64,000 nucleotides of DNA from Clostridia bacterium (GCA_045594045.1 JAZNXV010000024.1:18172-82171); one strand, 5' to 3'; shown: positions 2,930 to 36,292, numbered from the stretch's first letter. The notes: generated from the sequence alone by a model not told the origin. Program-made: numbers and translations.

Positions 2930-2938
2930 GGGGTATTT

Positions 2939-3553: not shown

Positions 3554-3578
3554 AAAATTTACAAAAGGACACGGATTA

Positions 3579-5702: not shown

Positions 5703-6523
5703 TTAGAGAGAGTTTTCACGTTCACACAAAGTATTGCGACGGAAAAAATACCCCTGATGAGATAGCAGAACAGGCAGTAAAAATAGGCTTTACACATCTT
5801 GGGTTTTCAGGTCACGCATTTATCGATAACGTGGGAAGCGGTTTAAGCGATGCTTATTGGATGAACAGACAAAACACAACTGAATATATTTCTGACGTTA
5901 ATAAGCTGAAAGACAAATTTTCTGATAAACTTCAAATTTTTTGCGGTGTTGAGCAAGATTTTTTTTCCGTTAAAGATATGGTTGAGTTTGATTATAAAAT
6001 CGGCTCGGTTCATTACGTTTTAAAGGACGGCAACTATCTTGCGGTAGACGAAAACGTTAAGCGGTTTAAAGAGAACGTTGATTTTTATTTCAAAGGAGAT
6101 TTCTACGGTTATGCCAAGGCGTATTATGACTTGGTAGGGGAGATTTTCGAAAGAACGTCTTGCGATATTATCGGTCACTTTGATTTGATAAGCAAATTTT
6201 TTGAAATGTTGGATATTAAAGAGGACGATAAGTATCTTTATATTGCTGAAAATGCGGTTGATGCACTTGTAAAATGTCAAAAACCCTTTGAAATCAATAC
6301 AGGCGCAATAGCACGAGGACACCGCACAACTCCGTATCCTGCAAGGGCTATTTTGGAAATGATAAAGAATAAAGGCGGTAAAATCATTTTTAACAGTGAT
6401 TGCCATAACAAATATTTTCTTGACTGCGGATACAGTATGGCGGAGCAATTAGCTAAAAACGTTGGCTTTACAAAAAGAAGCATTTTAACTAAAAACGGTT
6501 TTTGTGAGTTGGATTTTGATTAA
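5699..6523 (+). CDS. hisK: PHP-family histidinol-phosphatase
   Basis: HVHTKYCDG, GFSGH, IGSVH, GHFD, EINTG, NSDCH; last gene of the his operon, overlapping hisIE. Confidence 0.85.
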   Translation: MIRESFHVHTKYCDGKNTPDEIAEQAVKIGFTHLGFSGHAFIDNVGSGLSDAYWMNRQNTTEYISDVNKLKDKFSDKLQIFCGVEQDFFSVKDMVEFDYKIGSVHYVLKDGNYLAVDENVKRFKENVDFYFKGDFYGYAKAYYDLVGEIFERTSCDIIGHFDLISKFFEMLDIKEDDKYLYIAENAVDALVKCQKPFEINTGAIARGHRTTPYPARAILEMIKNKGGKIIFNSDCHNKYFLDCGYSMAEQLAKNVGFTKRSILTKNGFCELDFD

Positions 6524-6599: not shown

Positions 6600-7397
6600 A
6601 TGAAGATAATTGACTTTCATACACACGTATATCCCGAAAAGATAGCCCAGCGTGCTACTGAAAACGTAGTTGGATTTTATGATTTAAAAGAGGGCTTAGG
6701 CGGAAAAATAGGAACAAGCAAGGTTTTGCTTGAATGTGGTAGGAATGCAGGGATAGAAAACTACGTAATTTTGCCCGTGGCGCTTAAACCAGAACACGTG
6801 CGCCATGTAAATCAAGGCATTTTAAATGAATTAAGCTTGCATAAAGAGTTTTACGGCTTTGGAACAGTCCACGCGGGAATGGAAAATATTTCAGAGGAAA
6901 TTGAGTTTATTTCGTCAGTAGGCTTAAAGGGAGTAAAAATTCATCCTGACACTCAAAAATTTAATATGGATGATGAAAGGCTTTTTCCTATGTACGACGC
7001 AATACAAGGAAAATTGCCGATACTTATTCACTGCGGAGATCCGCGATACGATTTTTCGCACCCTCGAAGGCTTAAAAGAATAATTGATAATTTTCCAAAG
7101 CTTACCGTAATAGGCGCACATTTAGGCGGTTGGATGCTTTTTGATGAGGCGTTGGCTCTTTTAAAAGACACAAACTGTTATTTTGATATTTCAAGCTCAA
7201 GAATGTTTATGCGCACGGATGGCATTTATAAATATATAAACGCCTATGGTGCTGACAGGCTTCTGTTCGGTAGTGATTTTCCTATTTGGGACCCGCAAAA
7301 AGAAGCAGAGTATTTTTTGTCTTTAAACATTTCTTTTGCTGATAAGGAAAAAATAGGCTATAAAAATGCGCTTTGTATTTTAGGTGAAAAAATATAA
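6600..7397 (+). CDS. Amidohydrolase_2 family metal-dependent hydrolase
   Basis: IIDFHTH, GVKIHP, IHCGD, AHLGG, LFGSDFP. Confidence 0.85.
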   Translation: MKIIDFHTHVYPEKIAQRATENVVGFYDLKEGLGGKIGTSKVLLECGRNAGIENYVILPVALKPEHVRHVNQGILNELSLHKEFYGFGTVHAGMENISEEIEFISSVGLKGVKIHPDTQKFNMDDERLFPMYDAIQGKLPILIHCGDPRYDFSHPRRLKRIIDNFPKLTVIGAHLGGWMLFDEALALLKDTNCYFDISSSRMFMRTDGIYKYINAYGADRLLFGSDFPIWDPQKEAEYFLSLNISFADKEKIGYKNALCILGEKI

Positions 7398-7404
7398 AAA
7401 ATGC

Positions 7405-7433
7405 TTGACAGATATAGTAAAATAGGATAATAT
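7405..7433 (+). promoter_or_regulatory. Sigma-A promoter of Leu T-box unit
   Basis: TTGACA (7405-7410), 17 nt spacer, TAATAT (7428-7433), just upstream of the T-box leader. Confidence 0.75.
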
Positions 7434-7454
7434 GATTTAAAATTAAAAATTAAA

Positions 7455-7710
7455 TGCGGTGAAGATATTAAATGTAAGCTGTCAGCGCTTAAAGAGAGTC
7501 GTTGGTTGGTGCAAAACGATAGGTTGCGCTTATGTTGTCTCGTATCGGAGCAGGGTTTCGGAATTTTAGTAAGAAATCTCGGGCGGTCCCGTAACAGACC
7601 AAGGGTTTGTTAGAACCTATTAAGTGGCTTTTTAATTAAAGCAATTCGGGTGGTACCGTGGTTGAATTTATCAATCATCCCGCAAAGAGTTATTTCTTTG
7701 CGGTTTTTTT
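7455..7710 (+). promoter_or_regulatory. T-box riboswitch, Leu specifier (CUC)
   Basis: GA motifs GGTGAAG / TCGGAGC, AG box AGAGAG, GGTG box, specifier CTC at 7539-7541 followed by a purine, AGTA and CCGTAA stem II elements, T-box GGGTGGTACCGTGG (TGGTACC 7651-7657), terminator CCGCAAAGA..TCTTTGCGG + T run. Confidence 0.9.
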
Positions 7711-7749
7711 GTTTTTACGGACATTTAATTCTATTTAAGGAGTATTTTT

Positions 7750-9123
7750 ATGAAAAAAATCATTGTATCGGACGTTTCATTTTTCGTTGCGGAAGAAATT
7801 AAAAAGGAGCTTACCTTCAGAGAAAAACTGAATATTGCCGCTTGCCTTGATGATTGCGGGGTGGACGTTATCGAACTTCCCGAAGTAACCTGCGATAAAG
7901 AAAGTGCTGTTATTTATAAAACAATAGCATCTACAGTTAAAAAGTGCGGAATTAACGTTTCTGTAAGCAACAGCGAAAATATCGAAGCTTCCTGGAATAT
8001 GATTAAAGATGCAAAAAATCCCAAAATCCAAGTTGTTTTGCCCATTTCTACGGTGCAGATGGAGTATCAGTATCACTTAAAAGCTGCTGTTATGCTTCAA
8101 AAAATCGGCGAGCTTTGTGCAAATGCAAAAAATCTCGGTGCATCGGTTGAATTTGTTGCAAAGGATGCCACAAGAGCTGAAGAAGGCTTTTTGGCAGAGT
8201 GTGCGCTTATTGCCTATGAAAACGGCGCAGAAGCTGTTACTGTTTGTGATGACAGCGGTAGCTTTTTCCCCGAAGATTTTGTTGCAACAGTTCAGGCGAT
8301 TAAAGCAAAGTGCGATATAAAGGTTTACGTTCAGCCTTCAAACGCTTTAAATATGGCGGCGGCTTGTGCAACCGAAGCAGTTAAAGCCGGTGCCGACGGT
8401 GTTAAAACAGCTATATTTGGAAATATGCTTACGGCAGATTCACTTGCTGATATTTTTAGAGCAAAAGGTGATAAGCTTAACGGCAAAATTTCGTTGGACA
8501 GCACAAAAATTCATCACGCATTAAATCAAATGTGTTCGACTTGCGCTGTAGAGGGTGTTGAATCGATTGCAAGTGACGGTAACAGTACGGTTCTTGATAA
8601 CAACAGCACGATTAAGGATATTGCCGTTAATGCCCGTGCTCTTGGATATGAACTTTCCGACGAGGATTGTGGCAAAGTATTTGAAGAATTTAAACGTGTT
8701 TGCGCCAAAAAATCAAGCATTGGCACGAAGGAGCTTGAAGCTATTATTGCAACAAGCGCAATGCAAGTTCCTTCAACTTATCACCTTGTTAGCTACGTAG
8801 TGAATAGCGGTAACATTATTACCGCAACTGCAAATATTGTTTTGGAGCGTGACGGTGAAACATTAAGCGGTGTAAGCACAGGTGACGGCCCTATTGACGC
8901 GGCATTCCACGCTATTGAGCAGATTGTCGGTCATCATTACGAGCTTGATGATTTCCAGATTCAGTCCGTTACAAAGGGAAGAGAGGCTATGGGCTCATCA
9001 CTTATCAGATTGAGAGCATCAGGCAAGCTTTATTCGGGCAACGGAATATCAACGGATATTATCGGTGCTTGTATTCGTGCTTACATAAATGCACTTAACA
9101 AAATTGTTTATGAGGAAAACTAA
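7750..9123 (+). CDS. LeuA (2-isopropylmalate synthase)-like protein with degenerate catalytic barrel and intact leucine-binding regulatory domain
   Basis: LeuA architecture; C-terminal GDGPIDAAFHAI and STDIIGACIRAYINALN conserved; RDGEQ replaced by FVAEE, HxHND replaced by QPSNA. Confidence 0.85.
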   Translation: MKKIIVSDVSFFVAEEIKKELTFREKLNIAACLDDCGVDVIELPEVTCDKESAVIYKTIASTVKKCGINVSVSNSENIEASWNMIKDAKNPKIQVVLPISTVQMEYQYHLKAAVMLQKIGELCANAKNLGASVEFVAKDATRAEEGFLAECALIAYENGAEAVTVCDDSGSFFPEDFVATVQAIKAKCDIKVYVQPSNALNMAAACATEAVKAGADGVKTAIFGNMLTADSLADIFRAKGDKLNGKISLDSTKIHHALNQMCSTCAVEGVESIASDGNSTVLDNNSTIKDIAVNARALGYELSDEDCGKVFEEFKRVCAKKSSIGTKELEAIIATSAMQVPSTYHLVSYVVNSGNIITATANIVLERDGETLSGVSTGDGPIDAAFHAIEQIVGHHYELDDFQIQSVTKGREAMGSSLIRLRASGKLYSGNGISTDIIGACIRAYINALNKIVYEEN

Positions 9124-9124
9124 T

Positions 9125-11578
9125 ATGAAACTTGCGTTTTCAACTAAAAATGTTCAAGCGACTTCTTTTGTAGATTTGTGTAATAAAACTGCTGAGTACG
9201 AGTTTTCGGGCTTTGAAATTTTTGATGCGGAAAGTGAAAAAACTCTGCATAACGATAGCATTTTTCACTCCGGCGAATTAAGTGGCGCTAAACGAAAGCT
9301 TGTTAACAGGCATATTGAAATCAGCGCTTTAACTTGTCCAACCCCCATTAAAAGTGGCTTTGATGGCGAAATAATAAAAAATTACGTTTCTATGGCGGCA
9401 ACTGCGGCAATTCCTGCGGTGGTTGTAAGCTTTGAAGAAATCTGCGACTTTGAAGAGCTTAAAGCTATTTTTGCCCCTGCTATTACTTTGGCAGAGCAGT
9501 TTGAGGTTTCTATTTTGCTTGAAACTGCAGGTCCTTTGGCTGATACAAAAAAGGTGCTCGAAGTTATTAGTGTTTTCGGCACTGCCACAATAGGCGTTGC
9601 GTGGAATATACGCGAAACTTTTTTCACAGCAAAAGAAACTGCCGATAACACCATTCAAACTCTTGGTGCGTATATTGAATACGTGCGTATTGGCGATAAA
9701 AAAGATGATAAAAACGTGATTTTGGGCGAAGGCGAATTGCCTGTAACTGATTTTATGAACGCTTTAAAATCACTTAATTATGACGGTTTTGTATGCGTTG
9801 ATTGGAATGACGAGATTACTAACCCCGATATTGTTTTAACACATTTTGTAAGCTTTATGGCTAATAACTCAATTAATGATGTTAAACAAAAGGAAGTTTA
9901 TTATAACCGTGCAAAAACAGGAACTTTCCCTTGGAAGAAATATGACGTTCTTGATATTACCTTTTCGCAGGTTCTTGACGAAATGGTTGAAAGATATCCT
10001 GACCAGTACGCCTTTAAATACACTACTCTTGACTATACAAGAACTTATTCTGAATTCAGAGATGACGTTGATAAAATTGCCGCGGCTCTTATTTCAGTAG
10101 GTGTTAAGCCCGGGCATCACGTTGCAATTTGGGCAACAAATATTCCACAGTGGTTTTTAACTTTCTGGGCAACGGTTAAAATAGGTGCAGTTTTAGTTAC
10201 TGTTAATACTGCCTACAAAATTCACGAGGCTGAATATTTGCTTCGTCAATCAGACACTCATACTCTTGTTATGATTGACTCTTGTAAAGATTCAAACTAC
10301 AAGGAAATCATTGAAGAACTTTGCCCTGAACTTAGTTCCTTGGAAGCGGGTAAACCGTTATATTCAAAGAAATTACCTTTCTTGCGTAACGTAATTACCG
10401 TAGGCTTTAAGATGAACGGTTGTCTTGAGTGGGATGAGTTTAGCCAGCGTGCAAGGCTTGTGCCTTACGAAGAAGTACGCCGCAGAGCTTCAAAGGTTAA
10501 GACAAATGACGTTTGCAATATGCAATATACGTCAGGCACAACGGGCTTCCCTAAAGGCGTTATGCTTACCCACAACAACATTATAAATAACGGCAAAATT
10601 ATAGGCGATAGAATGGACATTTCTACTGCCGACAGAATGATGATACAAGTGCCCATGTTCCATTGTTTCGGTATGGTGCTTTCTATGACGAATCTTATGA
10701 CACACGGTGGTACGATTTGTCCTATGCCGTATTTTTCACCAAAGTCTTCTTTGGCTTGCATAAACGACGAAAAAATTACTTGCTTTAACGGCGTTCCTAC
10801 AATGTTTATTGCGATGTTTAATCACGCTGATTTTGCAAAAACCGATTTTTCATATATGCGAACAGGTATTATGGCAGGCGCTAACTGTCCTCCCGACCTT
10901 ATGCGCAGAGCCGCAAAAGAAATGAATATGTCGGAAATTATAAGCGTTTACGGTCAAACGGAAGCTTCTCCCGGCTGCACAATGGGTGAGGTTAATGAGG
11001 ACTTGGACCATAGAGTTGAAACCGTTGGAAGCGCTTTCCCCGGCGTTGAATGTAAAATTATTGATCCCGAAACAGGCGAAGAACTCCCTGACGGCGAAAA
11101 CGGTGAGTTTGTTGCAAGGGGCTATAATATTATGAAGGGCTACTATAAAATGCCCAAGGCTACTGAACAAACTATTGATAAAGACGGTTGGCTTCACAGC
11201 GGTGACATCTGCTGCAGAACTTCCGACGGATATTATAAGGTTACAGGCCGCTTGAAAGATATGATTATTCGCGGTGGTGAAAACCTTTATCCAAGAGAAA
11301 TTGAGGAATTCTATCTTACTCATTCAAAGGTTAAAGACGTTCAGGTAGTAGGTGTGCCCGATGCCCGTTACGGTGAAGAAGCTTGCGCTTGGATTGTGCT
11401 TAAAAAAGGCGAAGAAGCTTTAGAAGCTGATATGCGCGCCTATGGTGAAGAACACATGGCAAAACACAAGGTTCCAAGGTATTTTATCTTTGTAAAAGAT
11501 TTTCCAATGAATGCTGCGGGAAAAATTTTAAAATACAAAATGCGTGAGGATTCTATTAAGCAATTAGGGTTAGACTAA
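9125..11578 (+). CDS. Xylose-isomerase-like TIM barrel fused to AMP-forming acyl-CoA synthetase (YngI-like)
   Basis: ATG 9125 after GAGGA; N-terminal AP_endonuc_2-like barrel (MKLAFST..., LGEGELP, YDG); C-terminal YTSGTTGFPKG, YGQTE, SGD, GRLKDMIIRGGEN, PMNAAGKILK. Confidence 0.9.
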   Translation: MKLAFSTKNVQATSFVDLCNKTAEYEFSGFEIFDAESEKTLHNDSIFHSGELSGAKRKLVNRHIEISALTCPTPIKSGFDGEIIKNYVSMAATAAIPAVVVSFEEICDFEELKAIFAPAITLAEQFEVSILLETAGPLADTKKVLEVISVFGTATIGVAWNIRETFFTAKETADNTIQTLGAYIEYVRIGDKKDDKNVILGEGELPVTDFMNALKSLNYDGFVCVDWNDEITNPDIVLTHFVSFMANNSINDVKQKEVYYNRAKTGTFPWKKYDVLDITFSQVLDEMVERYPDQYAFKYTTLDYTRTYSEFRDDVDKIAAALISVGVKPGHHVAIWATNIPQWFLTFWATVKIGAVLVTVNTAYKIHEAEYLLRQSDTHTLVMIDSCKDSNYKEIIEELCPELSSLEAGKPLYSKKLPFLRNVITVGFKMNGCLEWDEFSQRARLVPYEEVRRRASKVKTNDVCNMQYTSGTTGFPKGVMLTHNNIINNGKIIGDRMDISTADRMMIQVPMFHCFGMVLSMTNLMTHGGTICPMPYFSPKSSLACINDEKITCFNGVPTMFIAMFNHADFAKTDFSYMRTGIMAGANCPPDLMRRAAKEMNMSEIISVYGQTEASPGCTMGEVNEDLDHRVETVGSAFPGVECKIIDPETGEELPDGENGEFVARGYNIMKGYYKMPKATEQTIDKDGWLHSGDICCRTSDGYYKVTGRLKDMIIRGGENLYPREIEEFYLTHSKVKDVQVVGVPDARYGEEACAWIVLKKGEEALEADMRAYGEEHMAKHKVPRYFIFVKDFPMNAAGKILKYKMREDSIKQLGLD

Positions 11579-11615
11579 AACACGCTATTTTAGGCAGTTT
11601 AATTGTAAAAAATAG

Positions 11616-11644
11616 TTGACAACCATATTATATTGTGCTATTAT
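11616..11644 (+). promoter_or_regulatory. Sigma-A promoter of Ile T-box unit
   Basis: TTGACA, 17 nt spacer, TG-n-TATTAT. Confidence 0.8.
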
Positions 11645-11662
11645 TAGCACATAATTTATAAA

Positions 11663-11933
11663 AGCTATGACGAAGACGGATTCGGTTGGCGCTTTATAGA
11701 GAGTCGGGGATGGTGGAAGCCCGATAAGTAAGTACTGAAAAATCCCATCACTTCTGAGCTGAAGGTCCGAAAGTTTTTGAACAAGTAGATGCCTTCCGTG
11801 ATTGCTGCGTAAAGGCAAAGGGCTTGTGTGAGCCTGAAGTGGCACAATGAATTTTGTGCAATTTGAGTGGTACCGCGGGAATTGTTTTTTCAAGACTCGT
11901 CTCAAAGTTTTTGAGACGAGTCTTTATTTTTTT
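11663..11933 (+). promoter_or_regulatory. T-box riboswitch, Ile specifier (AUC)
   Basis: GCTATGACGAAG / CTTCTGAGC GA motif, AGAGAG, GGTGGAA, specifier ATC at 11747-11749, T-box GAGTGGTACCGCGG (TGGTACC 11868-11874), terminator AAGACTCGTCTCAAA..TTTGAGACGAGTCTT + T run. Confidence 0.92.
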
Positions 11934-11947
11934 AAGGAGTGAGTAAA

Positions 11948-14215
11948 ATGAAAACTAACACCACATTGACACGTTTAATGGAAATCGCATCACGTATTAA
12001 GGAAATGCGCGAGATTATGGGATTTTCTGTTGAAGAAACAGCGCAAAAAACAGAAGTTTCTGTTGAAGAATATATTGCGTTTGAAAACGGTGAAAAAGAT
12101 ATTCCTTTTACTTTTATTCACAAGTGTGCTCTTTTGTTTGACGTGGAGCTTACAGAACTTTTGGAAGGTAAAGGTGCAAGACTTTCAAGTTATACTGTTA
12201 CCCGCAAAGGTCAGGGTCAGGATACTGCCAAAGAAAAGGGTATTGACATTAAAAACCTTGCTCCTAAATTCAGAGATAAAATTGCCGAGCCTTATTGGGT
12301 TAGATATGAATATTCTCCTGCACAGCAAAATATGCCCATTCACTTAACAAAGCATAGCGGACAGGAATTTGACCTTGTTTTAAGCGGTAAGTTAAAGGTG
12401 CAGATAGGCGACCATATTGAAATTTTAAACGAGGGTGACAGCATTTATTACGATAGTTCAACACCCCACGGTATGATAGCTGTTGACGGTGCCGATTGCG
12501 TTTTCTGTGCAGTTGTTCTTCCCGGAGAAGATACAAAGGAAGAAACTGTAAGAGAAAGCATCGTGTCTGCACAGTCTTCCCAAAAGCTCATTTGCGAAAA
12601 GTTTATTGAGTGTACTGAAGACGAAAACGGTGCATTAACCGATATTAAGTTTAAAAATATCGAAAAATTCAATTTCGGTTTTGATATTGTTGATGAAATA
12701 GCCAAGGCTTATCCTGATAAAACTGCTATGGTTTACGTTGATAAAAACCATAATGAGCGTAAATTTTCGTTTAAGGATATTAAAAAGGCTTCTAACCAAT
12801 GCGCTAACTATTTTACTTCCCTTGGAATTAAAAAGGGCGATAAGGTTATGCTTGTTTTAAAACGCCACTATCAATTCTGGTTTTCAATGATTGCCCTGCA
12901 CAAAATAGGTGCTGTGGCAATTCCCGCAACTAATCAGTTAAAGGAACACGATTTTGAATATCGTTTTAACGCCGCAGGGGTTAAGGCTATTGTTTGTACA
13001 AGCGACGGAGATACAACGCAAATTGTAGAAAACGCCGCACAAAATTGTCCTTGCCTTGAACATAAAATTATCGTGGGTAATCCGCGAGAAAATTGGCACG
13101 ATTTTAATAGCGAGTTTGCCCGTTTTTCAAGCAAATTCGAGCGTACTGACGATACCCCGGGCGGTGACGATGCAGCCCTTATGTTCTTTACGTCAGGTAC
13201 AACCGGCAATCCCAAAATGGCATGTCACAGGCACACTTACGGCTTAGGTCATTTTGTAACGGCTAAATACTGGCATTGTTGCGAACGCGATGGCTTGCAT
13301 TTTACAATTTCCGATACGGGTTGGGGTAAATCTCTTTGGGGCAAGCTTTACGGGCAGTGGCTTTGCGAAGGCGCTGTGTTTGTATATGACTTTGACCGCT
13401 TTGATGCCCACGACATTCTTCCTATGTTTAAAAAGTACGGTATAACAACGTTCTGCGCACCGCCTACTATGCTCCGTATGTTTATTAAAGAAGATTTGTC
13501 AAAATATGATTTCTCTTCGCTTCATTACATAACAACAGCGGGTGAAGCATTGAACCCTGAAGTTTATAAACAATTTAAGGCCGCTACGGGTCTTGAAATT
13601 ATGGAAGGCTTCGGTCAGACGGAAACTACTCTTACTATTTGTAATTTAAGGGGAACAAAGCCCAAAATCGGTTCAATGGGTCTTGCTTCGCCACAGTTTG
13701 ACGTGGATATAGTTGACCCTGACGGAAATAGCGTTCCAAGCGGCGAAACAGGTGAAATTGTAATCAGAACCGATAAAACAGTTCCTTGCGGATTGTTTAA
13801 GGAATATTACAACAACAAAGAACTTACGGACGAAGCCTGGCACGACGGAATGTATCACACAGGTGATACTGCCTGGCGCGACGAGGACGGCTACTTCTGG
13901 TACGTAAGCCGTATTGATGACGTTATCAAATCCTCTGGTTATCGTATAGGCCCCTTTGAAATCGAAAGTGTAATTATGGAACTTCCTTACGTGCTTGAAT
14001 GCGGCGTTTCTGCGGCACCTGATGAGATTCGAGGTCAGGTTGTCAAGGCAAGCATTGTTTTAACCAAGGGAACAGAGGGCACAGAGGAACTTAAAAAGGA
14101 AATTCAAGAGTACGTTAAGTCCCACACTGCACCGTATAAATACCCGAGAATTATTGTATTTTGCGATGAGCTGCCTAAAACTATCAGCGGAAAGATTCAA
14201 CGCAATAAACTTTAA
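11948..14215 (+). CDS. XRE HTH + cupin + medium/branched-chain acyl-CoA synthetase fusion (paralog 1)
   Basis: ATG 11948 after AAGGAG; N-terminal HTH (IKEMREIMGFSVEETA), cupin (HSGQEF..YYDSSTPHGM), ligase motifs FTSGTTGNPK, GFGQTET, YHTGD, PKTISGKIQR. Confidence 0.92.
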   Translation: MKTNTTLTRLMEIASRIKEMREIMGFSVEETAQKTEVSVEEYIAFENGEKDIPFTFIHKCALLFDVELTELLEGKGARLSSYTVTRKGQGQDTAKEKGIDIKNLAPKFRDKIAEPYWVRYEYSPAQQNMPIHLTKHSGQEFDLVLSGKLKVQIGDHIEILNEGDSIYYDSSTPHGMIAVDGADCVFCAVVLPGEDTKEETVRESIVSAQSSQKLICEKFIECTEDENGALTDIKFKNIEKFNFGFDIVDEIAKAYPDKTAMVYVDKNHNERKFSFKDIKKASNQCANYFTSLGIKKGDKVMLVLKRHYQFWFSMIALHKIGAVAIPATNQLKEHDFEYRFNAAGVKAIVCTSDGDTTQIVENAAQNCPCLEHKIIVGNPRENWHDFNSEFARFSSKFERTDDTPGGDDAALMFFTSGTTGNPKMACHRHTYGLGHFVTAKYWHCCERDGLHFTISDTGWGKSLWGKLYGQWLCEGAVFVYDFDRFDAHDILPMFKKYGITTFCAPPTMLRMFIKEDLSKYDFSSLHYITTAGEALNPEVYKQFKAATGLEIMEGFGQTETTLTICNLRGTKPKIGSMGLASPQFDVDIVDPDGNSVPSGETGEIVIRTDKTVPCGLFKEYYNNKELTDEAWHDGMYHTGDTAWRDEDGYFWYVSRIDDVIKSSGYRIGPFEIESVIMELPYVLECGVSAAPDEIRGQVVKASIVLTKGTEGTEELKKEIQEYVKSHTAPYKYPRIIVFCDELPKTISGKIQRNKL

Positions 14216-14223
14216 AAAACTGA

Positions 14224-14253
14224 TTGACAGTTTTAGCTAAGATATGATATAAT
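14224..14253 (+). promoter_or_regulatory. Sigma-A promoter of Val T-box unit
   Basis: TTGACA, 18 nt spacer, TG-n-TATAAT. Confidence 0.8.
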
Positions 14254-14268
14254 TTTTTTAATTTAAAA

Positions 14269-14540
14269 GGCATTGACGAAGAGGGCTTCTGGCTTTTCGG
14301 CAAAGAGAAACGGCGGGTGGTGCGAGCCGTTGCGAAAGTCAGTCTGCTTGTAGCTTCTGAGCCGAAAGGAAGAAAGAGCTTTTTGCTTAAGTAGAACCTT
14401 TCCGTGATTGCTGCGTAAACGCATAAGGCTTGTTCGAGTCTGAGGGGCGTGGCTTATTGCTACGCAATTTGAGTGGTACCGCGGGTAATTTAGCTCGTCT
14501 CAAAGTTATCATATCTTTGAGGCGGGCTTTTGTTATTTTT
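14269..14540 (+). promoter_or_regulatory. T-box riboswitch, Val specifier (GUA)
   Basis: GGCATTGACGAAG / CTTCTGAGCC GA motif, AGAGA, GGTGCGA, specifier GTA at 14350-14352, T-box GAGTGGTACCGCGG (TGGTACC 14474-14480), terminator AGCTCGTCTCAAAG..CTTTGAGGCGGGCT + T run. Confidence 0.92.
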
Positions 14541-14567
14541 TCCGTCTCAACCGTGGAGGAGTTTTTT

Positions 14568-16862
14568 ATGAAAACAGCAACCGGACTTGAATTCAAGATT
14601 CGGGAGATGGCCCAAAGAATTAAAACCTTGCGTGAAATTATTGGACTTTCTCAACAAGAAATGGCAACTAAAACCGGTGTTTCATTAGAAGAGTATTCTT
14701 CTTGTGAAGCGGGGGAAAGTGACTTGAACTTTGCGTTTTTGTATAAATGCGCAATAGCACTTAACGTTGACGTTACTGATATTATCGAAGGCACAAGCCC
14801 TCGTCTTGCAGGCTACACCGTTACCCGTGCCGGCGAAGGTCAGGAAATTCAAAAGGCGCACGGAATGACCTACTATAACCTTGCACCTACCTTTAAAAAC
14901 CGTATTGCAGAGCCTTTGTACGTTGTTTTTCACTATGATGAAAATGCACAGAACAAGGAAATTGAGCTTACTACTCACGAGGGTCAGGAATGTGATATCG
15001 TTGTAAAGGGTGCTCTTAAGGTTCAGGTGGGTGACCACGTTGAAATTTTGCACGAGGGCGACAGCATTTATTACGACAGCTCTATGCCTCACGGTATGAT
15101 TGCCGTTGAAAACAGCGATTGTATTTTCTATGCGTTTGTGCTTAATTCAAATGATAATGCGGCAAAGCTCGTTCACGGCGGTGCTCGTGACGTGATTTTT
15201 GCACCAAGCAAAAAGCAGGAAAAGCAACAAAAACGCATTTGGGAAGATTATATTATTCCCGTTGAAGACGAAAACGGTGTTTTAAAGTCTATTTCCTTCA
15301 AAAATGAAGAAACCTTTAACTTTGCCTTTGACGTTATTGATAAATTAGGTCGGGAGTACCCCGAAAAGACTGCAATAATGCATATTGCTGAAGATAAAAC
15401 AGAAAAGAGAATCACTTTTGGTGAGCTTAAACGTGCATCTTCTCAAACAGCAAACTACTTTAAGTCTTTAGGAATTAAAAAAGGCGATAAGGTAATGCTT
15501 ATTTTAAAGCGTCATTATCAGTTCTGGTACGCTATACTTGCACTTCATAAAATCGGCGCTATTGCAATTCCCGCAACTAATCAGTTAAAGGAACACGATA
15601 TTACGTATCGATTCAACAAGGCAGGCGTAAAAATGGTTGTTTGTACAAGCGACGGAATTGTTGCTGATGAGGTTGATAAGGCGGCAGAATTAAGTCCTAT
15701 CCTTGAAACAAAAATCATTGTAGGTAAAAGCCGTGAAGGCTGGCGCAATTTTGATGAAGAATATAGTCTTTATACAGGAAAAATGTATAAAGATGAAAAT
15801 ACTGCTTGTGGCAGCGACCCAATGCTTATGTACTTTACGTCAGGTACAACGGGCAACCCCAAATTAGCAGTGCATAATTACAAATATCCTCTCGGTCATT
15901 TTGTAACGGCTAAATATTGGCATTGTGTAAATCCCGACGGATTGCACTTAACCGTTGCTGATACAGGTTGGGCGAAGGCGGCATGGGGTAAGCTTTACGG
16001 TCAATGGCTCTGTGAAGCAGGTATTTTCGTTTATGATTTTGACCGCTTTGATGCAAATGACATTTTGCCCATGTTTAAAAAATACGGCATCACAACCTTC
16101 TGTGCTCCGCCTACAATTTTAAGAATGATGGTAAAGCAGGATATTTCAAAATTTGATTTATCTACCATTGAACATATGACTACCGCAGGCGAAGCCTTAA
16201 ACCCCGAGGTTTTCAGGCAATTTGAGCTTGCAACGGGCCTGCAGATAATGGAAGGCTTTGGACAGACAGAAACTACTGTTGCAGTTGCTAATCTGGCAGG
16301 TACAAAGTCAAGGCTTGGCTCAATGGGTAAGCCCGTACCGCTTTACGATATTCAGCTCGTTGATTCAAACGGCGAACCCGTAGCTGTAGGTGAGGTTGGC
16401 GAAATTGTTATTAACGTTTCCGAAAAAACACCTTGCGGCTTATTCAACGGCTATTATACTGATGAAGAAAAAACTGCTGAATGTTGGCACGATGGCTTCT
16501 ATCACACAGGCGATACTGCTTGGCGCGATGAGGACGGCTATTTCTGGTACGTAGGCAGAGTGGATGACGTTATTAAGTCTTCAGGTTACCGTATCGGTCC
16601 TTTTGAAATTGAAAACGTTATTATGGAGCTTCCTTATGTGCTTGAGTGCGGCGTTTCTGCTGAACCTGATGAAGTTCGCGGTCAGGTAGTTAAAGCAAGT
16701 ATTGTGCTTGTTAAAGGAACAGAAGCTACTGACGAGCTTAAGAAAGAAATTCAAGAGTACGTTAAACAACGTACCGCACCTTACAAATATCCCCGTGTAG
16801 TAGTTTTCAGGGACGAGCTTCCTAAAACTACCAGCGGAAAAATTCAAAGAAATAAATTATAA
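14568..16862 (+). CDS. XRE HTH + cupin + medium/branched-chain acyl-CoA synthetase fusion (paralog 2)
   Basis: ATG 14568 after GGAGGAG; same architecture as 11948-14215 (IKTLREIIGLSQQEMA, HEGQEC..YYDSSMPHGM, FTSGTTGNPK, PKTTSGKIQR). Confidence 0.92.
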   Translation: MKTATGLEFKIREMAQRIKTLREIIGLSQQEMATKTGVSLEEYSSCEAGESDLNFAFLYKCAIALNVDVTDIIEGTSPRLAGYTVTRAGEGQEIQKAHGMTYYNLAPTFKNRIAEPLYVVFHYDENAQNKEIELTTHEGQECDIVVKGALKVQVGDHVEILHEGDSIYYDSSMPHGMIAVENSDCIFYAFVLNSNDNAAKLVHGGARDVIFAPSKKQEKQQKRIWEDYIIPVEDENGVLKSISFKNEETFNFAFDVIDKLGREYPEKTAIMHIAEDKTEKRITFGELKRASSQTANYFKSLGIKKGDKVMLILKRHYQFWYAILALHKIGAIAIPATNQLKEHDITYRFNKAGVKMVVCTSDGIVADEVDKAAELSPILETKIIVGKSREGWRNFDEEYSLYTGKMYKDENTACGSDPMLMYFTSGTTGNPKLAVHNYKYPLGHFVTAKYWHCVNPDGLHLTVADTGWAKAAWGKLYGQWLCEAGIFVYDFDRFDANDILPMFKKYGITTFCAPPTILRMMVKQDISKFDLSTIEHMTTAGEALNPEVFRQFELATGLQIMEGFGQTETTVAVANLAGTKSRLGSMGKPVPLYDIQLVDSNGEPVAVGEVGEIVINVSEKTPCGLFNGYYTDEEKTAECWHDGFYHTGDTAWRDEDGYFWYVGRVDDVIKSSGYRIGPFEIENVIMELPYVLECGVSAEPDEVRGQVVKASIVLVKGTEATDELKKEIQEYVKQRTAPYKYPRVVVFRDELPKTTSGKIQRNKL

Positions 16863-16877
16863 TAGGAGAGTATTAAA

Positions 16878-17957
16878 ATGAAGTATGAAATTTCAGTAAC
16901 AAAAACAACAACTCCTAAGGCTCATCCCGCCGATGAATCAAAGCTTGGCTTTGGTAAAGTTTTCACCGACCATATGTTCCTTATGGACTATTCAGATGAA
17001 AAAGGCTGGTATGATGCAAGAATCGTTCCTTTTGGTCCTATTGCAATTCATCCTGCATCTACAGTACTTCACTATGGCGCAGAAATCTTTGAAGGTATGA
17101 AGGCATATCGCACAGAAAATGGCGAAATTGCACTTTTTAGACCTATGGAAAACATTAAGCGTCTTAATAATTCTGCAGAGCGTCTTTGCTTGCCCGCTCT
17201 TGACGAGGAAGGCTGTCTTGAAATTTTAAAAACTCTTGTTGAGCTTGAAAAGGATTGGGTTCCGTCTTCTGAGGGCACGTCGCTTTATCTCAGACCTTTC
17301 TTGTTCGGTAACGACCCCCATTTAGGTGTTCACGCCGTTCATAATGCAACCTTTGCAGTAATTTGTTCGCCTGTAGGCGCTTATTATGCCGAAGGCATTA
17401 ACCCTGTTAAAATTGCTATTGAAAACGTTGACGTTCGTGCGGTTCGCGGTGGCACAGGTTATGCTAAGTGCGGCGGTAACTATGCGGCAAGCCTTCGTGC
17501 AGGTCAAAGAGCAGAAGAAAGAGGCTACACTCAAGTGCTTTGGCTTGACGGTGTTGACAGAAAGTATATTGAAGAAGTTGGTAGTATGAACGTTATGTTC
17601 AAGGTGAACGGCAAAATCATCACTCCCGCTCTTACCGGCTCAGTTTTACCCGGTATTACAAGAAAATCTTGTATCGAGCTTTTAAAAGAGTGGGGATACG
17701 AGGTTGAAGAACGCTTATTCAGCGTTGACGAGCTTTTTGAAGCTGCCGAAAACGGTACTCTTGAAGAAGCATGGGGAACAGGTACTGCTGCTGTTGTTTC
17801 ACCTATTGGTCATCTTTTCTATGACGGTAAGGAATATACCGTTTCTGATAACAAAATCGGCGCTCTTACCCAAAAGCTTTACGACAATCTTACGGGTATT
17901 CAATGGGGCAAAATTGAAGACAAGCATAATTGGCTTGTAAAGGTTTGCAATGGCTGA
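16878..17957 (+). CDS. ilvE: Branched-chain amino acid aminotransferase
   Basis: LGFGKVFTDHM, LHYGAEIFEGMKAY, YLRP, AKCGGNYAASL, IEEVGSMN, LPGITR, GTAAVVSP. Confidence 0.96.
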   Translation: MKYEISVTKTTTPKAHPADESKLGFGKVFTDHMFLMDYSDEKGWYDARIVPFGPIAIHPASTVLHYGAEIFEGMKAYRTENGEIALFRPMENIKRLNNSAERLCLPALDEEGCLEILKTLVELEKDWVPSSEGTSLYLRPFLFGNDPHLGVHAVHNATFAVICSPVGAYYAEGINPVKIAIENVDVRAVRGGTGYAKCGGNYAASLRAGQRAEERGYTQVLWLDGVDRKYIEEVGSMNVMFKVNGKIITPALTGSVLPGITRKSCIELLKEWGYEVEERLFSVDELFEAAENGTLEEAWGTGTAAVVSPIGHLFYDGKEYTVSDNKIGALTQKLYDNLTGIQWGKIEDKHNWLVKVCNG

Positions 17958-18615
17958 TTATAAACGTGTTTATATTATTGCAGGACATTACGGCAGTGGA
18001 AAAACAAACATTGCCGTAAACCTTGCACTTAAAATGAAGCAAGACGGTTTTAACGTGCGTATTGCCGATTTAGATATTGTTAACCCGTATTTCAGAACAA
18101 AGGATAGCGCCAAAGAGCTTGAAAATGCAGGGGTTGAACTTATTTCACCTGCTTTTGCCAACACAAACGTTGATTTGCCTGCACTTCCTCAAGAAATTTA
18201 CGGTGTTATTCAGCGAAAAGACGCACTTGCGGTGCTTGACGTTGGCGGTGATGACCGAGGCGCTTATGCTCTTGGCAGATACGCACCGAGCATCAAGGAA
18301 GAAAATAACTATGAAATGTGCTTTGTAGTTAATTTCTATCGTCCGCTAACACAAACAGCAGAGGAAGCATTGGAGATTATGCGGGAAATTGAACAAGCCG
18401 CTTCAATTAAGTTCACTACAATAATTAACAATTCTAATCTTGGTAACGATACCACAAGCGAAACAGTTTTAGCTTCTATAGAAAAAGCTGAGGAGCTCTC
18501 GCAAATTTCGGGATTGCCTATATTGTTCAATTCCGTAAAAGAAGGTATAAATAATGTTCCTGACAGCTTTTCTTTGAGCTTGCAGGAAAAATATTTTGAT
18601 ATAAAGGAGTCTTAA
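17950..18615 (+). CDS. Uncharacterised P-loop NTPase (MinD/CobQ-like) associated with vor genes
   Basis: Walker A GHYGSGKT, DLDIVNPYFR, LDVGGD. Confidence 0.75.
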   Translation: MADYKRVYIIAGHYGSGKTNIAVNLALKMKQDGFNVRIADLDIVNPYFRTKDSAKELENAGVELISPAFANTNVDLPALPQEIYGVIQRKDALAVLDVGGDDRGAYALGRYAPSIKEENNYEMCFVVNFYRPLTQTAEEALEIMREIEQAASIKFTTIINNSNLGNDTTSETVLASIEKAEELSQISGLPILFNSVKEGINNVPDSFSLSLQEKYFDIKES

Positions 18616-18616
18616 A

Positions 18617-18823
18617 ATGGCAAAGGTTACTTTTAATGCAGACGCTTGCAAGGGCTGCGGTCTTTGTGTAGAGGCTTGCCCTAAAAAGATTTTGATTTTA
18701 GCAAAAGATAAGCTTAACGCGAAAGGTCATTCTCCTGCAGAAATGACTGACCAAGAAAAGTGCATCGGTTGCGCTTTCTGTGCAACAATGTGCCCTGATT
18801 GCGTTATAACAGTTGAAAAATAA
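18617..18823 (+). CDS. 2x[4Fe-4S] ferredoxin, delta subunit of 2-oxoacid:ferredoxin oxidoreductase
   Basis: CKGCGLCVEACP and CIGCAFCATMCP. Confidence 0.93.
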   Translation: MAKVTFNADACKGCGLCVEACPKKILILAKDKLNAKGHSPAEMTDQEKCIGCAFCATMCPDCVITVEK

Positions 18824-18855
18824 GTTTAAGCTAATTTAGCAGATTGGAGATAAAT

Positions 18856-19917
18856 ATGGCAGAAAAGGTTTTAATGAAGGGTAATGAAGCTATTGCAGAA
18901 GCCGCTATTAAAGCAGGCTGCAAGCTTTATTTTGGTTATCCTATTACTCCCCAAACTGAAATTGCCGCTTATATGGCAAAGCGTATGCCCAAAATCGGCG
19001 GTACATTTCTTCAGGCAGAGAGTGAAGTTTCAGCAATAAATATGGTTTACGGTGTTGCGGGCGCAGGTTTTAGAGTTATGACGTCCTCTTCAAGCCCCGG
19101 AATTTCCTTAAAGCAAGAAGGTATTTCGTATATTGCCGGTGCAGATTTGCCCGCTTTAATCGTTAACGTTCAGCGTGGCGGCCCCGGTCTTGGTGGTATT
19201 CAGCCTTCACAGTCTGACTATTTTCAGGCAACAAAGGGCGGCGGACACGGTGACTATCACTTAATCGTTCTTGCCCCTGCTTCTGTTCAAGAAATGGCAG
19301 ATTTAACAGTTAAGGCTTTCGACCTTTCCGATAAATACAGAGTTCCTGCGATGCTTCTTGCTGACGGTACAATGGGTCAAATGATGGAGCCTGTTGAATT
19401 GCCCGAAATTGAAGAAAAAACAGTAGATAAGCCTTGGGCAGTAACGGGAACAAAGATGAAGAGAAAGCACAACGTTATTAACTCTCTGTATCTTAACCCC
19501 GAGAAATTAGAGCAAACCAATATTGAAAGATTTGCCCGCTATAAGCAAATTGAAGAAAATGAATGCTTATGGGAAGAATATATGATGGAGGACGCCGAAT
19601 ACTGTGTTGTTGCCTTTGGTATTGCTGCACGTGTTTCTAAAAACGCTGTTACAGCCGCAAGAAAGGCAGGCATAAAGGTTGGCTTGATTCGCCCCATAAC
19701 ACTTTGGCCATTCCCCACAAAAGCTTTAAGAAGCGCCGCAGATAAGGTTAAAGGCTTTGTTTCCGTTGAGCTTTCAATGGGTCAGATGATAGAAGATATC
19801 AAGCTTGCAACTGAATGCAAGCGTCCCGTAGAGCTTTGCAACCGCAGTGGCGGTATGATTCCCACACCTGAGCACGTGCTCGAAACCATAGAAAAACTTG
19901 TAAAGGAGGCAAAATAA
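18856..19917 (+). CDS. vorB: 2-oxoisovalerate-type 2-oxoacid:ferredoxin oxidoreductase, alpha-type subunit
   Basis: MKGNEAIAEAAI, GYPITPQ, QAESE, TSSSSPG, RGGPGLG.IQPSQSDY. Confidence 0.9.
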   Translation: MAEKVLMKGNEAIAEAAIKAGCKLYFGYPITPQTEIAAYMAKRMPKIGGTFLQAESEVSAINMVYGVAGAGFRVMTSSSSPGISLKQEGISYIAGADLPALIVNVQRGGPGLGGIQPSQSDYFQATKGGGHGDYHLIVLAPASVQEMADLTVKAFDLSDKYRVPAMLLADGTMGQMMEPVELPEIEEKTVDKPWAVTGTKMKRKHNVINSLYLNPEKLEQTNIERFARYKQIEENECLWEEYMMEDAEYCVVAFGIAARVSKNAVTAARKAGIKVGLIRPITLWPFPTKALRSAADKVKGFVSVELSMGQMIEDIKLATECKRPVELCNRSGGMIPTPEHVLETIEKLVKEAK

Positions 19918-20669
19918 TGAAAGTGTTTGAAAAACCGAAGGCTTTAACTGATGCAACCTTTCACTATTGTCCCGGTTGCACTCACGGTATTATTCACCGC
20001 CTTGTAGCTGAAGCTATTGACGAGCTTGGCATTGAAGGTAACACTATCGGCGTTGCTCCCGTTGGCTGTGCAGTTATGGCATATGATTATTTTGCTTGCG
20101 ATATGGTGGAAGCCGCTCACGGCAGAGCACCTGCTATTGCTACAGGCTTAAAGCGCGCAATGCCCGAAAATATCATCTTTACTTATCAAGGCGACGGCGA
20201 CCTTGCTTCTATCGGTATGGCAGAAACAGTACACGCCGCTACAAGAAATGAAAACATCACTATTATTTTTGTTAACAATGCAATTTACGGTATGACAGGC
20301 GGTCAAATGGCACCTACGTCGCTTCCCGGTCAGGTAACACAGACCTCTCCTTACGGTCGTGACGTTTTAACTCAGGGCTTCCCGATTAAAGTAAGCGAGT
20401 TACTTTCCTCCCTTGACGGTCCTGAATATATCGAGCGTGTTGCGGTTAACAATGTTAAAAACATCAGAAACGCCAAAAAGGCCATTTTAAAGGCATTTAA
20501 GAACCAAACCGAAGGAAAAGGCTTCTCACTTGTTGAAATCGTTTCTTCGTGCCCTACAAACTGGGGAATGACGCCCCAGAAGGCTCTTGAATGGATTGAT
20601 GAAAAAATGTTGCCTTATTATCCTTTAGGTGTATATAAGGATAAAAGCGCCGCAAAGAAGGAGGACTAA
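19917..20669 (+). CDS. 2-oxoacid:ferredoxin oxidoreductase, TPP-binding beta subunit
   Basis: YCPGCTHG, HGRAPA, YQGDGD, NNAIYGMTGGQMAP, CPTNWG. Confidence 0.92.
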   Translation: MKVFEKPKALTDATFHYCPGCTHGIIHRLVAEAIDELGIEGNTIGVAPVGCAVMAYDYFACDMVEAAHGRAPAIATGLKRAMPENIIFTYQGDGDLASIGMAETVHAATRNENITIIFVNNAIYGMTGGQMAPTSLPGQVTQTSPYGRDVLTQGFPIKVSELLSSLDGPEYIERVAVNNVKNIRNAKKAILKAFKNQTEGKGFSLVEIVSSCPTNWGMTPQKALEWIDEKMLPYYPLGVYKDKSAAKKED

Positions 20670-20672
20670 AAA

Positions 20673-21209
20673 ATGACAACTCAAATTCTTATTGCAGGCT
20701 TTGGTGGTCAAGGCGTTTTGTTTGCAGGTAAGTTTATTGCATATAAAGGTCTTGTAGAAGGCAAGGAATTAAGCTGGTTGCCCTCCTACGGTCCTGAAAT
20801 GCGTGGCGGTACTGCTAACTGCAGTGTTATTTTAAGCGATACGCCTGTAGGTTCACCGATAGTAGCTAATCCTGACGTGCTTATGGCGATGAATCTTCCT
20901 TCACTTGATAAATATGAAGATGCAACTGTTTCCGGCGGAAGCATTTTTATTGACAGCACCTTAATTAAGCGTAAGGTTAATAGGGAAGATGTTAAGGCAT
21001 TTTATATTCCCGCAACACAAATGGCTATTGATGCAGGCGTTCCTACGTTGGCTAATATGATTATGGTTGGCAAAATGCTTAAAGAAACGGGCGTTCTCTC
21101 CTTTGACGGTATGGTTGATACCTTAAAGAAGATAGTATCAGCAAGGCGTGCTGAATTGCTTGATATGAACTTAAAGGCTCTTGAAGCAGGATATAATTAC
21201 GAAGGTTAA
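20673..21209 (+). CDS. 2-oxoacid:ferredoxin oxidoreductase, gamma subunit
   Basis: AGFGGQGV, PSYGPEMRGG. Confidence 0.92.
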   Translation: MTTQILIAGFGGQGVLFAGKFIAYKGLVEGKELSWLPSYGPEMRGGTANCSVILSDTPVGSPIVANPDVLMAMNLPSLDKYEDATVSGGSIFIDSTLIKRKVNREDVKAFYIPATQMAIDAGVPTLANMIMVGKMLKETGVLSFDGMVDTLKKIVSARRAELLDMNLKALEAGYNYEG

Positions 21210-21224
21210 TCTACTTTTTAAAGC

Positions 21225-21256
21225 AAAAGGCACTTGCGGGTCAAGTGCCTTTTTAT
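21225..21256 (+). terminator. Intrinsic terminator of the ilvE-vor operon
   Basis: AAAAGGCACTTG-cgggt-CAAGTGCCTTTT. Confidence 0.85.
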
Positions 21257-21282
21257 TATATTGTTTTTCCGTTGAATATATA

Positions 21283-21420
21283 TTTTACGTTGAACAAAAT
21301 GTGTTTCTTTGTTATGTGTTACGTTAAGCATAAGGTGCTTCTTGGCTGTGTGTTTTGCGTTAAACGTATGATGCTTCTTTACCGTGTGTTTTTATGTAGA
21401 ACGCAAGAAATATTTTTGTA
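21283..21420. repeat. Degenerate ~35 bp tandem repeat, about 4 units
   Basis: Units such as TTTTACGTTGAACAAAATGTGTTTCTTTGTTATGTG / TTACGTTAAGCATAAGGTGCTTCTTGGCTGTGTG / TTTTGCGTTAAACGTATGATGCTTCTTTACCGTGTG. Confidence 0.55.
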
Positions 21421-23390: not shown

Positions 23391-23481
23391 GATTCTAGTT
23401 TCCTTTCAAATTTTATTTTTATATTCTCCGCACCTTGGGGCGACAAACCCAAGGCGGTGAACATCAAAGAAGATAATGCCG

Positions 23482-25483: not shown

Positions 25484-25497
25484 AAAACATATCCTCC

Positions 25498-26556: not shown

Positions 26557-26569
26557 CCTTTGTATCTCC

Positions 26570-30007: not shown

Positions 30008-30107
30008 AAAAATCTCCTTTAAAACAATTATATTTGAAGTGTGCAACAAAATAATTAAGTAAGAGCATATAACACACAAACAGACGTTAAAAAATTACAA
30101 CATAAAT

Positions 30108-36060: not shown

Positions 36061-36292
36061 AATACTCCTTAAAAATACGGTTAAATGCGATTTTACCGTT
36101 TCATTTAATTAAATGACAACCGTAATGTAAATTAATTAAAAAGCAAAAGTGACTTTTTTCTTATTATACACGGAATTATAAAAAAGTCAAATTTTAAGCC
36201 GCACAGCAAAAGAAATAGGTAAAATGTGTATTTTAACCTTTATTTTGTAAATAATAGAAAGACAAATGCAAAAAAAGCAAATGGAGGTAAAA

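Follow-up and report, generated by a model that had tools for sequence, protein, structure and literature searches.

The DNA analysed here is a 64,000-nucleotide stretch from a Clostridia bacterium (GCA_045594045.1 JAZNXV010000024.1:18172-82171), referred to below as the window. It lies on contig C24 of an assembly (G000) of 1.63 Mb that is 94.8% complete, with about 5% of the genome missing. At positions 7405-21262 of the plus strand, the window contains a cluster of three consecutive units, each with a promoter, a T-box leader and a terminator. The specifier codons of the T-boxes are CUC (Leu), AUC (Ile) and GUA (Val). The Leu unit encodes a LeuA-like protein without the catalytic residues of LeuA (dead LeuA) and an acyl-CoA ligase (ligase 1). 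The Ile and Val units encode ligases 2 and 3, and ligase 3 is followed by ilvE, a P-loop NTPase gene and four genes for a Vor-type 2-oxoacid:ferredoxin oxidoreductase (OFOR) (Table 1). From the sequence, we interpreted the cluster as quite probably serving the biosynthesis (salvage) of Leu, Ile and Val from branched acids, by reductive carboxylation through Vor followed by transamination by IlvE.

Table 1. Features of the cluster, in window coordinates (aa, amino acids; HTH, helix-turn-helix; TPP, thiamine pyrophosphate)
Feature	Position	Strand	Basis
Promoter P1, sigma70-type, TTGACA-17-TAATAT	7405..7433	+	10/12 consensus; similar promoters before Leu T-box in relatives
Leu T-box leader	7450..7710	+	RF00230; specifier CUC 7539-7541; bulge UGGUACC; terminator stem 7680-7703 + U tract
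LeuA-like pseudoenzyme, 457 aa	7750..9123	+	PF00682 + PF08502; HMGL-like barrel without metal Asp and both His
Ligase 1, 817 aa, candidate isovalerate-CoA ligase	9125..11578	+	Xylose-isomerase-like TIM barrel (AP_endonuc_2) fused to AMP-forming acyl-CoA ligase
Promoter P2, sigma70-type, TTGACA-17-TATTAT, TG	11616..11644	+	11/12 consensus
Ile T-box leader	11658..11933	+	RF00230; specifier AUC 11747-11749; terminator stem 11892-11924 + U tract
Ligase 2, 755 aa, candidate 2-methylbutyrate-CoA ligase	11948..14215	+	XRE-HTH + cupin fused to MacsMa/MbcS-like ligase; pocket GW-G460-K
Promoter P3, sigma70-type, TTGACA-18-TATAAT, TG	14224..14253	+	12/12 consensus
Val T-box leader	14264..14540	+	RF00230; specifier GUA 14350-14352; terminator hairpin ~14492-14528 + U-rich tail
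Ligase 3, 764 aa, candidate isobutyrate-CoA ligase	14568..16862	+	XRE-cupin-ligase paralogue; pocket GW-A469-K
IlvE branched-chain aminotransferase, 359 aa	16878..17957	+	TIGR01123 400.7 vs cut-off 250.05; PRK13357 483 vs 307
CobQ/MinD/ParA-type P-loop NTPase, 221 aa	17950..18615	+	Weak CbiA/ParA Pfam matches
Vor delta subunit, 2x[4Fe-4S] ferredoxin-type, 68 aa	18617..18823	+	Pfam/NCBIfam
Vor alpha-type subunit, 353 aa, NCBI name VorB	18856..19917	+	NF005507/PRK07119 570.6 vs cut-off 399
Vor beta (TPP-binding) subunit, 250 aa	19917..20669	+	Beta-family matches, below cut-offs
Vor gamma subunit, 178 aa	20673..21209	+	Pfam/NCBIfam
Intrinsic terminator ending cluster	21225..21262	+	Scan + fold, z -3.86

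All three leaders spanned positions 1-219 of the T-box model RF00230. The Leu match (7450-7685, 110.4 bits) and the Ile match (11658-11907, 96.0 bits) exceeded the gathering score of 93, and the Val match (14264-14505, 92.1 bits, E 7.6e-21) fell 0.9 below it. The covariance alignment placed CUC, AUC and GUA at 7539, 11747 and 14350, exactly where a preliminary description of this DNA had read the specifier triplets. In TBDB, CUC, AUC and GUA are the most frequent specifiers of Leu, Ile and Val T-boxes (0.77, 0.99 and 0.61, respectively), and a T-box permits transcription when its tRNA is uncharged (PMC7778990; except for PMC11477304, this and the other sources are cited from excerpts).

The terminators of the Leu, Ile and Val leaders folded with z values of -3.2, -4.65 and -4.25. 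The Val hairpin was not listed by the terminator scanner, which has a loop limit of 8, and was placed by folding. Truncated leaders folded into antiterminator-like hairpins that were individually not significant (z -1.65, -0.68 and -1.01). The bulge sequence UGGUACC was present in all three leaders, fully unpaired in the folds of the Ile and Val leaders. The N of the UGGN bulge was U in 158 of 161 module leaders surveyed.

A scan of 7300-21400 for sigma70-type promoters produced 34 matches, a total not above chance (28.4 +/- 5.0 in shuffled sequences). The top three, at 14224, 11616 and 7405, each stood just before a T-box, the last with a score (10/12) tied with five other matches. The possibility that an inverted repeat over P2 (11634-11651) serves as operator of the ligases' XRE domains was rejected, as the repeat was not conserved in relatives.

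Nine T-boxes were found in the whole genome. The six outside the cluster presumably precede genes for aminoacyl-tRNA synthetases and a TrpB-like protein, as read by eye. In the ARAGORN listing, the assembly had no tRNA-Ile, and a tRNA-Leu with anticodon AAG was present but none with GAG. The tRNA left to pair with the CUC specifier would be the AAG one, possibly inosine-edited.

Pfam and NCBIfam searches recovered the whole of the previously listed gene set of ilvE, a P-loop NTPase and four Vor-type subunits. The alpha-type subunit passed its family cut-off; the beta, gamma and delta subunits matched OFOR families below the cut-offs of these families. The NTPase had no NCBIfam match, only unnamed CbiA-type clusters. 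In every related locus in which vor genes were seen on its strand, it immediately preceded the Vor ferredoxin subunit, and it may possibly be an Fe-S maturation factor. Each T-box had also been described as leading a ligase. This was true of the Ile and Val units; the Leu unit starts with the LeuA-like gene, which that description did not name, and ligase 1 comes second. Pfam further revealed N-terminal fusions on all three ligases, which the preliminary description did not contain.

The arrangement was followed in the best 80 of 616 confirmed ligase 2 relatives. These close loci came from metagenome-assembled genomes (MAGs) labelled Clostridia, Acutalibacteraceae, Oscillospiraceae, Christensenellaceae or Eubacteriales, many of them titled ruminant gut. 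Their specifiers were read by profile alignment, with a profile built from the window's own leaders. Altogether 164 T-boxes were found. All 28 before a dead LeuA gene carried CUC. Before ligase 2 there were 75, of which 74 carried AUC and one was cut by a contig end. All 58 before ligase 3 had Val codons (57 GUA and one GUC). The remaining three were a GUA before ilvE, an AUC without an assigned gene and an ACC before an unrelated permease. The synonymous GUC, together with a CUG in a more distant Leu unit (see below), indicated that selection of the amino acid, and not the exact codon, is conserved. The pairing of specifier and ligase was fixed across the 80 loci of this neighbourhood survey. 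The position of vorA was also regular: it lay behind the Val T-box in 46 of 48 close loci and behind the Ile T-box in two; in G244 it lay behind the Leu unit.

The canonical pathway was not detected when the entire assembly was searched with profiles. No ilvD was found. No ilvC was found, only weak Rossmann-fold matches that were 2-hydroxyacid-dehydrogenase-like. No ilvB was found, the TPP_N-domain matches being IolD-like and IorA proteins. The match for leuB was Idh and that for leuC was a PRK11413 hydratase, leaving neither gene detected in the assembly. Of two other HMGL-like proteins, one was oxaloacetate-decarboxylase-like and one had no LeuA family match at 1e-60. The absence of ilv and leu genes, first claimed for the window, therefore extended to the 94.8%-complete assembly. 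Neither BrnQ nor a LivK-type binding protein was detected in the assembly. On the other hand, the his genes (in the window), PFOR and chorismate synthase were present, which indicated that the cell has not dropped biosynthesis in general.

Another locus of this genome (L208, G000:C34:50907-57819) encodes an acyl-CoA ligase, a solute symporter, an IorA/IorB indolepyruvate oxidoreductase and a PaaK-like ligase. Such genes would be expected in a pathway from aryl acids to aromatic amino acids; chorismate synthase is present elsewhere too. No T-box was found at this iorAB-paaK cluster.

In a class-wide sample of 150 Clostridia genomes, one of which (G199) was not scored for ilvC, the XRE-cupin-ligase fusion occurred in 45, and 39 of these were without ilvC. 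The ilvC gene was present in 6/45 genomes with the fusion vs 68/104 others, and in 4/30 genomes with dead LeuA vs 70/119 others, kin genomes not being independent in either comparison, so that Fisher P values for these counts are overstated. LeuB scored above its cut-off in the same 4/30 dead-LeuA genomes, with one further partial match, and LeuB-like matches below the cut-off (255-302 bits) were seen in nine genomes. An ilvD-family match was found in five of the 41 genomes behind the named loci, and four of these were weak. PF00920 matches of 356-381 bits in module carriers were tried as ilvD and rejected: they look like other dehydratases, and ilvC was found in none of the four tested of those five genomes (G069 was not among the tested). 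Among five carrier genomes tested for ilvC, only G104 had it, and the G104 locus is without ligase 3. Within a genus, no clean pattern of anticorrelation between the module and ilvD was found.

Ligases 2 and 3 share 62% identity. The top PDB match of both was 3ETC, the MacsMa structure (E 1.6e-187 and 7.4e-184, respectively). Their best NCBIfam family was MbcS (NF047394), at 456 and 449 bits against a cut-off of 850, too low for membership. Both have the AMP-binding domains of MacsMa/MbcS-type ligases and a Gly (G556/G565) aligned to E. coli Acs W414, and the second pocket Trp (W464) was invariant in 121/121 ligases. Gly in place of Acs Trp414 together with a second pocket Trp is a feature of the MacsMa-type pocket (PMC10455477). 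The favoured substrate of MacsMa is 2-methylbutyrate (PMC10455477; PMC11300592), and MbcS activates 2-methylbutyrate and isobutyrate, isovalerate poorly (PMC10026030). This would explain a separate ligase family in the Leu branch.

In a set of 126 full-length ligases, sequences led by an Ile T-box (71) and by a Val T-box (50) fell into separate clades distinguished by 17 diagnostic positions, 10 of them within the first 170 residues. At the pocket site G460/A469, which aligns with E. coli Acs V310, Gly was found in 71/71 Ile-led and Ala in 50/50 Val-led ligases. 3ETC carries Gly at this site. We take the Acs Val310 position to line the acyl pocket; a literature search for a paper on this residue found none. 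The extra methyl of Ala would fit isobutyrate, which is one carbon smaller than 2-methylbutyrate.

A distant set of 87 ligases, two of them from the window, was collected from 80 hand-picked stretches (20 that contained 22 of 56 matches from one search, and 60 drawn across families from the 149 matches of another). A T-box was present with 42 of them, in the combinations Gly and AUC (24), Ala and GUA (16) and Ala and AUC (two). The residue thus fitted the switch in 40/42. Fifteen of the 16 Val cases formed one clade nested among Ile fusions and were therefore counted as one event. The other, L105, is a second Val and Ala case in a distant clade, with a T-box confirmed by Rfam. In the two exceptions, L175 and L176, the antiterminator bulges were degenerate. 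These results suggested that the switches probably label ligase 2 (2-methylbutyrate) and ligase 3 (isobutyrate).

The 45 ligases of the distant set without a T-box had Ala (30), Gly (7), Leu (4), Met (3) or Val (1) at the pocket site. Those with Leu (GWLK; L124, L135, L138 and L140) formed a third clade, located after vorG with a separate XRE-cupin gene. The Met variant (GWMK) was seen in L164, L171 and L173. The GWLK and GWMK ligases possibly act on a smaller acid such as propionate. In L175 (6123-14549, genome G210), the Ile-type T-box with its degenerate bulge leads the ligase and then canonical ilvB-ilvN-ilvC-ilvD-leuA. A smaller acid would also fit this ligase, as in propionate to 2-oxobutyrate, a recognised route (GapMind preprint 10.1101/741918).

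The LeuA-like protein scored under every LeuA cut-off (216 vs 599 bits for TIGR00973). Its catalytic residues were surveyed across 178 dead-LeuA sequences, a set that may hold near-duplicates, with the real LeuA of L175 as reference. The metal Asp was present in 1/178, each His in 0/178 and the Glu of the EDA motif in 5/178. The Asp of the R-D-G-E-Q motif and the His-x-His are presumably what binds the metal in LeuA. On the other hand, the allosteric domain PF08502 was clearly recognised (E 5.9e-31) with its G-x-G-P-[IV]-D-A motif conserved, and conservation within the family was 80% for this domain and 52% for the barrel. Judged by these residues, the protein is not an isopropylmalate synthase. 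Its likeliest role would be that of a leucine-sensing partner of ligase 1, a proposal that we consider evenly balanced.

Dead LeuA was found in 30 of the 149 other class-wide genomes, and the gene was followed directly by a TIM-ligase gene in 29/29 class-level loci. The 18 T-boxes detected before it all carried Leu codons (17 CUC and one CUG); in 11 loci none was found within 1.5 kb. In L071, L072, L079, L081 and L087 the Leu unit had moved behind the vor genes, and CUC was retained. At L115 (2473-5305), a T-box stands right before the gene of an 843-aa TIM-ligase without dead LeuA; its specifier is probably CUC, the alignment being uncertain. The TIM domain of ligase 1 was considered solely as a dock for dead LeuA, and this was rejected: similar domains occurred in 81/150 other genomes, vs 30 with dead LeuA. 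Many of them were in 840-870 aa frames, and TIM-ligase was found also without dead LeuA. The best NCBIfam family of ligase 1 was PRK12583, at 672 of 832 bits. Isovalerate as its substrate was favoured by elimination, by the Leu switch and by the partner derived from LeuA, somewhat less firmly than the assignments of ligases 2 and 3.

In the mechanism that we propose, uncharged tRNA-Leu, tRNA-Ile or tRNA-Val would stabilise the antiterminator of the matching T-box and that unit would be transcribed. The ligases would turn branched acids of the gut into their CoA esters, isovalerate by ligase 1, 2-methylbutyrate by ligase 2 and isobutyrate by ligase 3, the last two being best supported. AMP-forming ligases drive the activation of acids (PMC10455477). 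The shared Vor would then use CO2 and reduced ferredoxin to carboxylate the acyl-CoA, giving the 2-oxoacid, and IlvE, from its profile family, would transaminate this to the amino acid. The route would stand in for the missing ilvBNCD and leuABCD. Dead LeuA and the XRE-cupin domains would probably add feedback by the free amino acids, on weaker grounds. More tentatively, the whole may be a widespread, undescribed replacement of ilv and leu in uncultured Clostridia of gut and rumen, in which tRNA charging picks the ligase, dead LeuA (Leu) and XRE-cupins tuned to Ile or Val feed back, and Gly or Ala sets C5 vs C4.

Several points weigh against this reading or parts of it. In the window, gene order places ilvE and vor downstream of the Val T-box only. 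The preliminary description had treated the cluster as one regulated module, but its regulation is not uniform: starvation for Leu or Ile alone would not obviously induce the shared ilvE-vor genes. Basal read-through is the simplest guess for the supply of Vor under these conditions. The Gly/Ala split of the close set goes back to one duplication, not many events, Ala is common (30/45) even in ligases without any T-box, and Ala ligases stand behind AUC leaders in L175 and L176. Ligase 1 had no characterised close homologue in structure and NCBIfam comparisons. Four dead-LeuA genomes retain ilvC and leuB. Four well-assembled genomes of the same genus without the ligase were also without ilvD, which indicated that ilv loss does not require the module. 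The oligopeptide transporter next door raises the possibility that peptides supply Leu, Ile and Val. In a 2020 paper, EC 1.2.7.7 is put forward as a possible route, with the reverse reaction 'not proven yet' (PMC7709123), and branched-chain aminotransferase (BCAT) and VOR of Bacteroidales are described as oxidative makers of lipid primers (PMC11300592).

That description favours a scheme in which, at amino-acid shortage, the ligases only activate external branched acids as primers of iso and anteiso fatty acids, and IlvE and Vor supply the same acyl-CoAs oxidatively. It would agree with MbcS as the best NCBIfam family of ligases 2 and 3, though below cut-off, and MbcS of Staphylococcus aureus feeds FabH (PMC10026030). 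However, IlvE and Vor induced at uncharged tRNA-Val would consume the scarce amino acid, and no other source of Leu, Ile or Val was detectable in the genome. The ligases were also enriched in genomes without ilvC, and G210 has its ligase in a canonical ilv-leu operon. We consider this scheme improbable on its own; lipid priming is likely a side use compatible with biosynthesis. Fermentation of Leu, Ile and Val by IlvE and Vor with excretion of branched acids is far less probable still. VOR is usually described as oxidative (PMC11300592; PMC7709123), but switching on at uncharged tRNA is the opposite of a catabolic need, AMP/PPi-forming ligases favour activation over acid release, and no dedicated importer of branched-chain amino acids (BCAAs) was detected in the genome.

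The pathway and its direction might be right and the switches no labels of specificity, ligases 2 and 3 being broad and interchangeable and their duplication providing two regulatory inputs. MacsMa and MbcS each take more than one branched acid (PMC10455477; PMC10026030), only one such ligase is present in some genomes (for example L074), and two Ala ligases sit behind AUC leaders. Against this, pocket Gly or Ala tracked the specifier in 71/71 and 50/50 ligases and in 40/42 more widely, and both exceptions had a degenerate antiterminator bulge, one of them heading ilvBNCD-leuA. This made broad, interchangeable ligases rather unlikely. Use of propionate (to 2-oxobutyrate) in place of 2-methylbutyrate by the Ile unit is hardly to be expected. 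That recognised route (GapMind preprint 10.1101/741918) may apply to G210, but it needs IlvB, IlvC and IlvD, none of which was detected in this genome, and the pocket of ligase 2 is open, with Gly as in MacsMa. The direction of the pathway and the labelling of the ligases, as put forward in the preliminary description, were thus supported by the comparative evidence: no canonical pathway, fixed pairing, kinship to 3ETC and the Gly/Ala switch.

The cluster is preceded in the window by a complete-looking his operon (341-6523), whose last gene encodes a PHP-domain protein (candidate histidinol phosphatase), and by an amidohydrolase gene (6600-7397). The oligopeptide ABC transporter operon (21558-27499, minus strand) converges on it from immediately downstream. 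Farther on are an open reading frame at 28394-30079 (minus strand), read by eye as an XRE-type HTH fused to a phosphoglucosamine-mutase-like domain, and one of 2599 aa at 36266-44065 (plus strand).

Labelling and nutrition studies of the reductive carboxylation route were reportedly made by Allison et al. (1962, 1966), Robinson and Allison (1969) and Allison and Peel (1971). Formation of Leu from isovalerate, of Val from isobutyrate and of Ile from 2-methylbutyrate is cited for rumen bacteria (PMC7356843) and for methanogens (PMC10658910). The substrates, products and chemistry proposed here are alike, and the cluster would add genes, a ligase for each branch and control by tRNA sensing. In Bacteroidales, too, Vor (EC 1.2.7.7; PRK07119) works with BCAT, and here IlvE is adjacent and the alpha-type subunit passes the family cut-off. 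Those enzymes are oxidative as described, whereas here a starvation switch precedes the vor genes and no ilv pathway was detected in the genome.

With known transcriptional T-boxes, the cluster shares the Stem I specifier, the UGGN bulge, the terminator/antiterminator and control over the supply of the sensed amino acid. The ilv-leu operon of Bacillus subtilis has a Leu T-box. In Clostridioides difficile, leuA (CD0989) is preceded by a T-box (PMC11477304). Known T-boxes govern ilv/leu genes, synthetases or transporters, whereas those of the cluster govern acid-CoA ligases and a ferredoxin oxidoreductase, with three specificities together. Dead LeuA is like LeuA (TIGR00973) in its barrel, allosteric leucine-binding domain and Leu T-box control, and differs in having neither the metal Asp nor the His-x-His, in the absence of leuBCD and in its place directly before a TIM-ligase gene. 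MacsMa (3ETC; Q8TLW1 per PMC11300592) has the GWGK motif of ligase 2, whereas ligase 3 has Ala. Unlike ligases 2 and 3, this archaeal enzyme (Methanosarcina acetivorans) has no N-terminal XRE-cupin in the aligned chain. S. aureus MbcS, whose family cut-off ligases 2 and 3 do not reach, is one enzyme for both acids, and its product goes to membrane fatty acids.

A literature search without most subscription papers, supplements and the TBDB table found no account of T-box-controlled ligase-Vor-IlvE clusters, so an earlier annotation is possible. The excerpts of PMC12131731 and PMC11304471 contained nothing on such a module. The parts are known, and the chemistry has been known since the 1960s; their arrangement here was not found described. 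For the gut and rumen route known from that labelling, the cluster gives candidate genes, substrate assignments and control logic, and the LeuA-derived pseudoenzyme is a candidate leucine sensor. If the interpretation is true, auxotrophy calls would change for many gut MAGs, and isoacid cross-feeding and isoacid feed supplements would be tied to specific organisms. On the more tentative reading of a widespread replacement, genomes scored as BCAA auxotrophs would be those of CO2-fixing prototrophs dependent on cross-fed branched acids.

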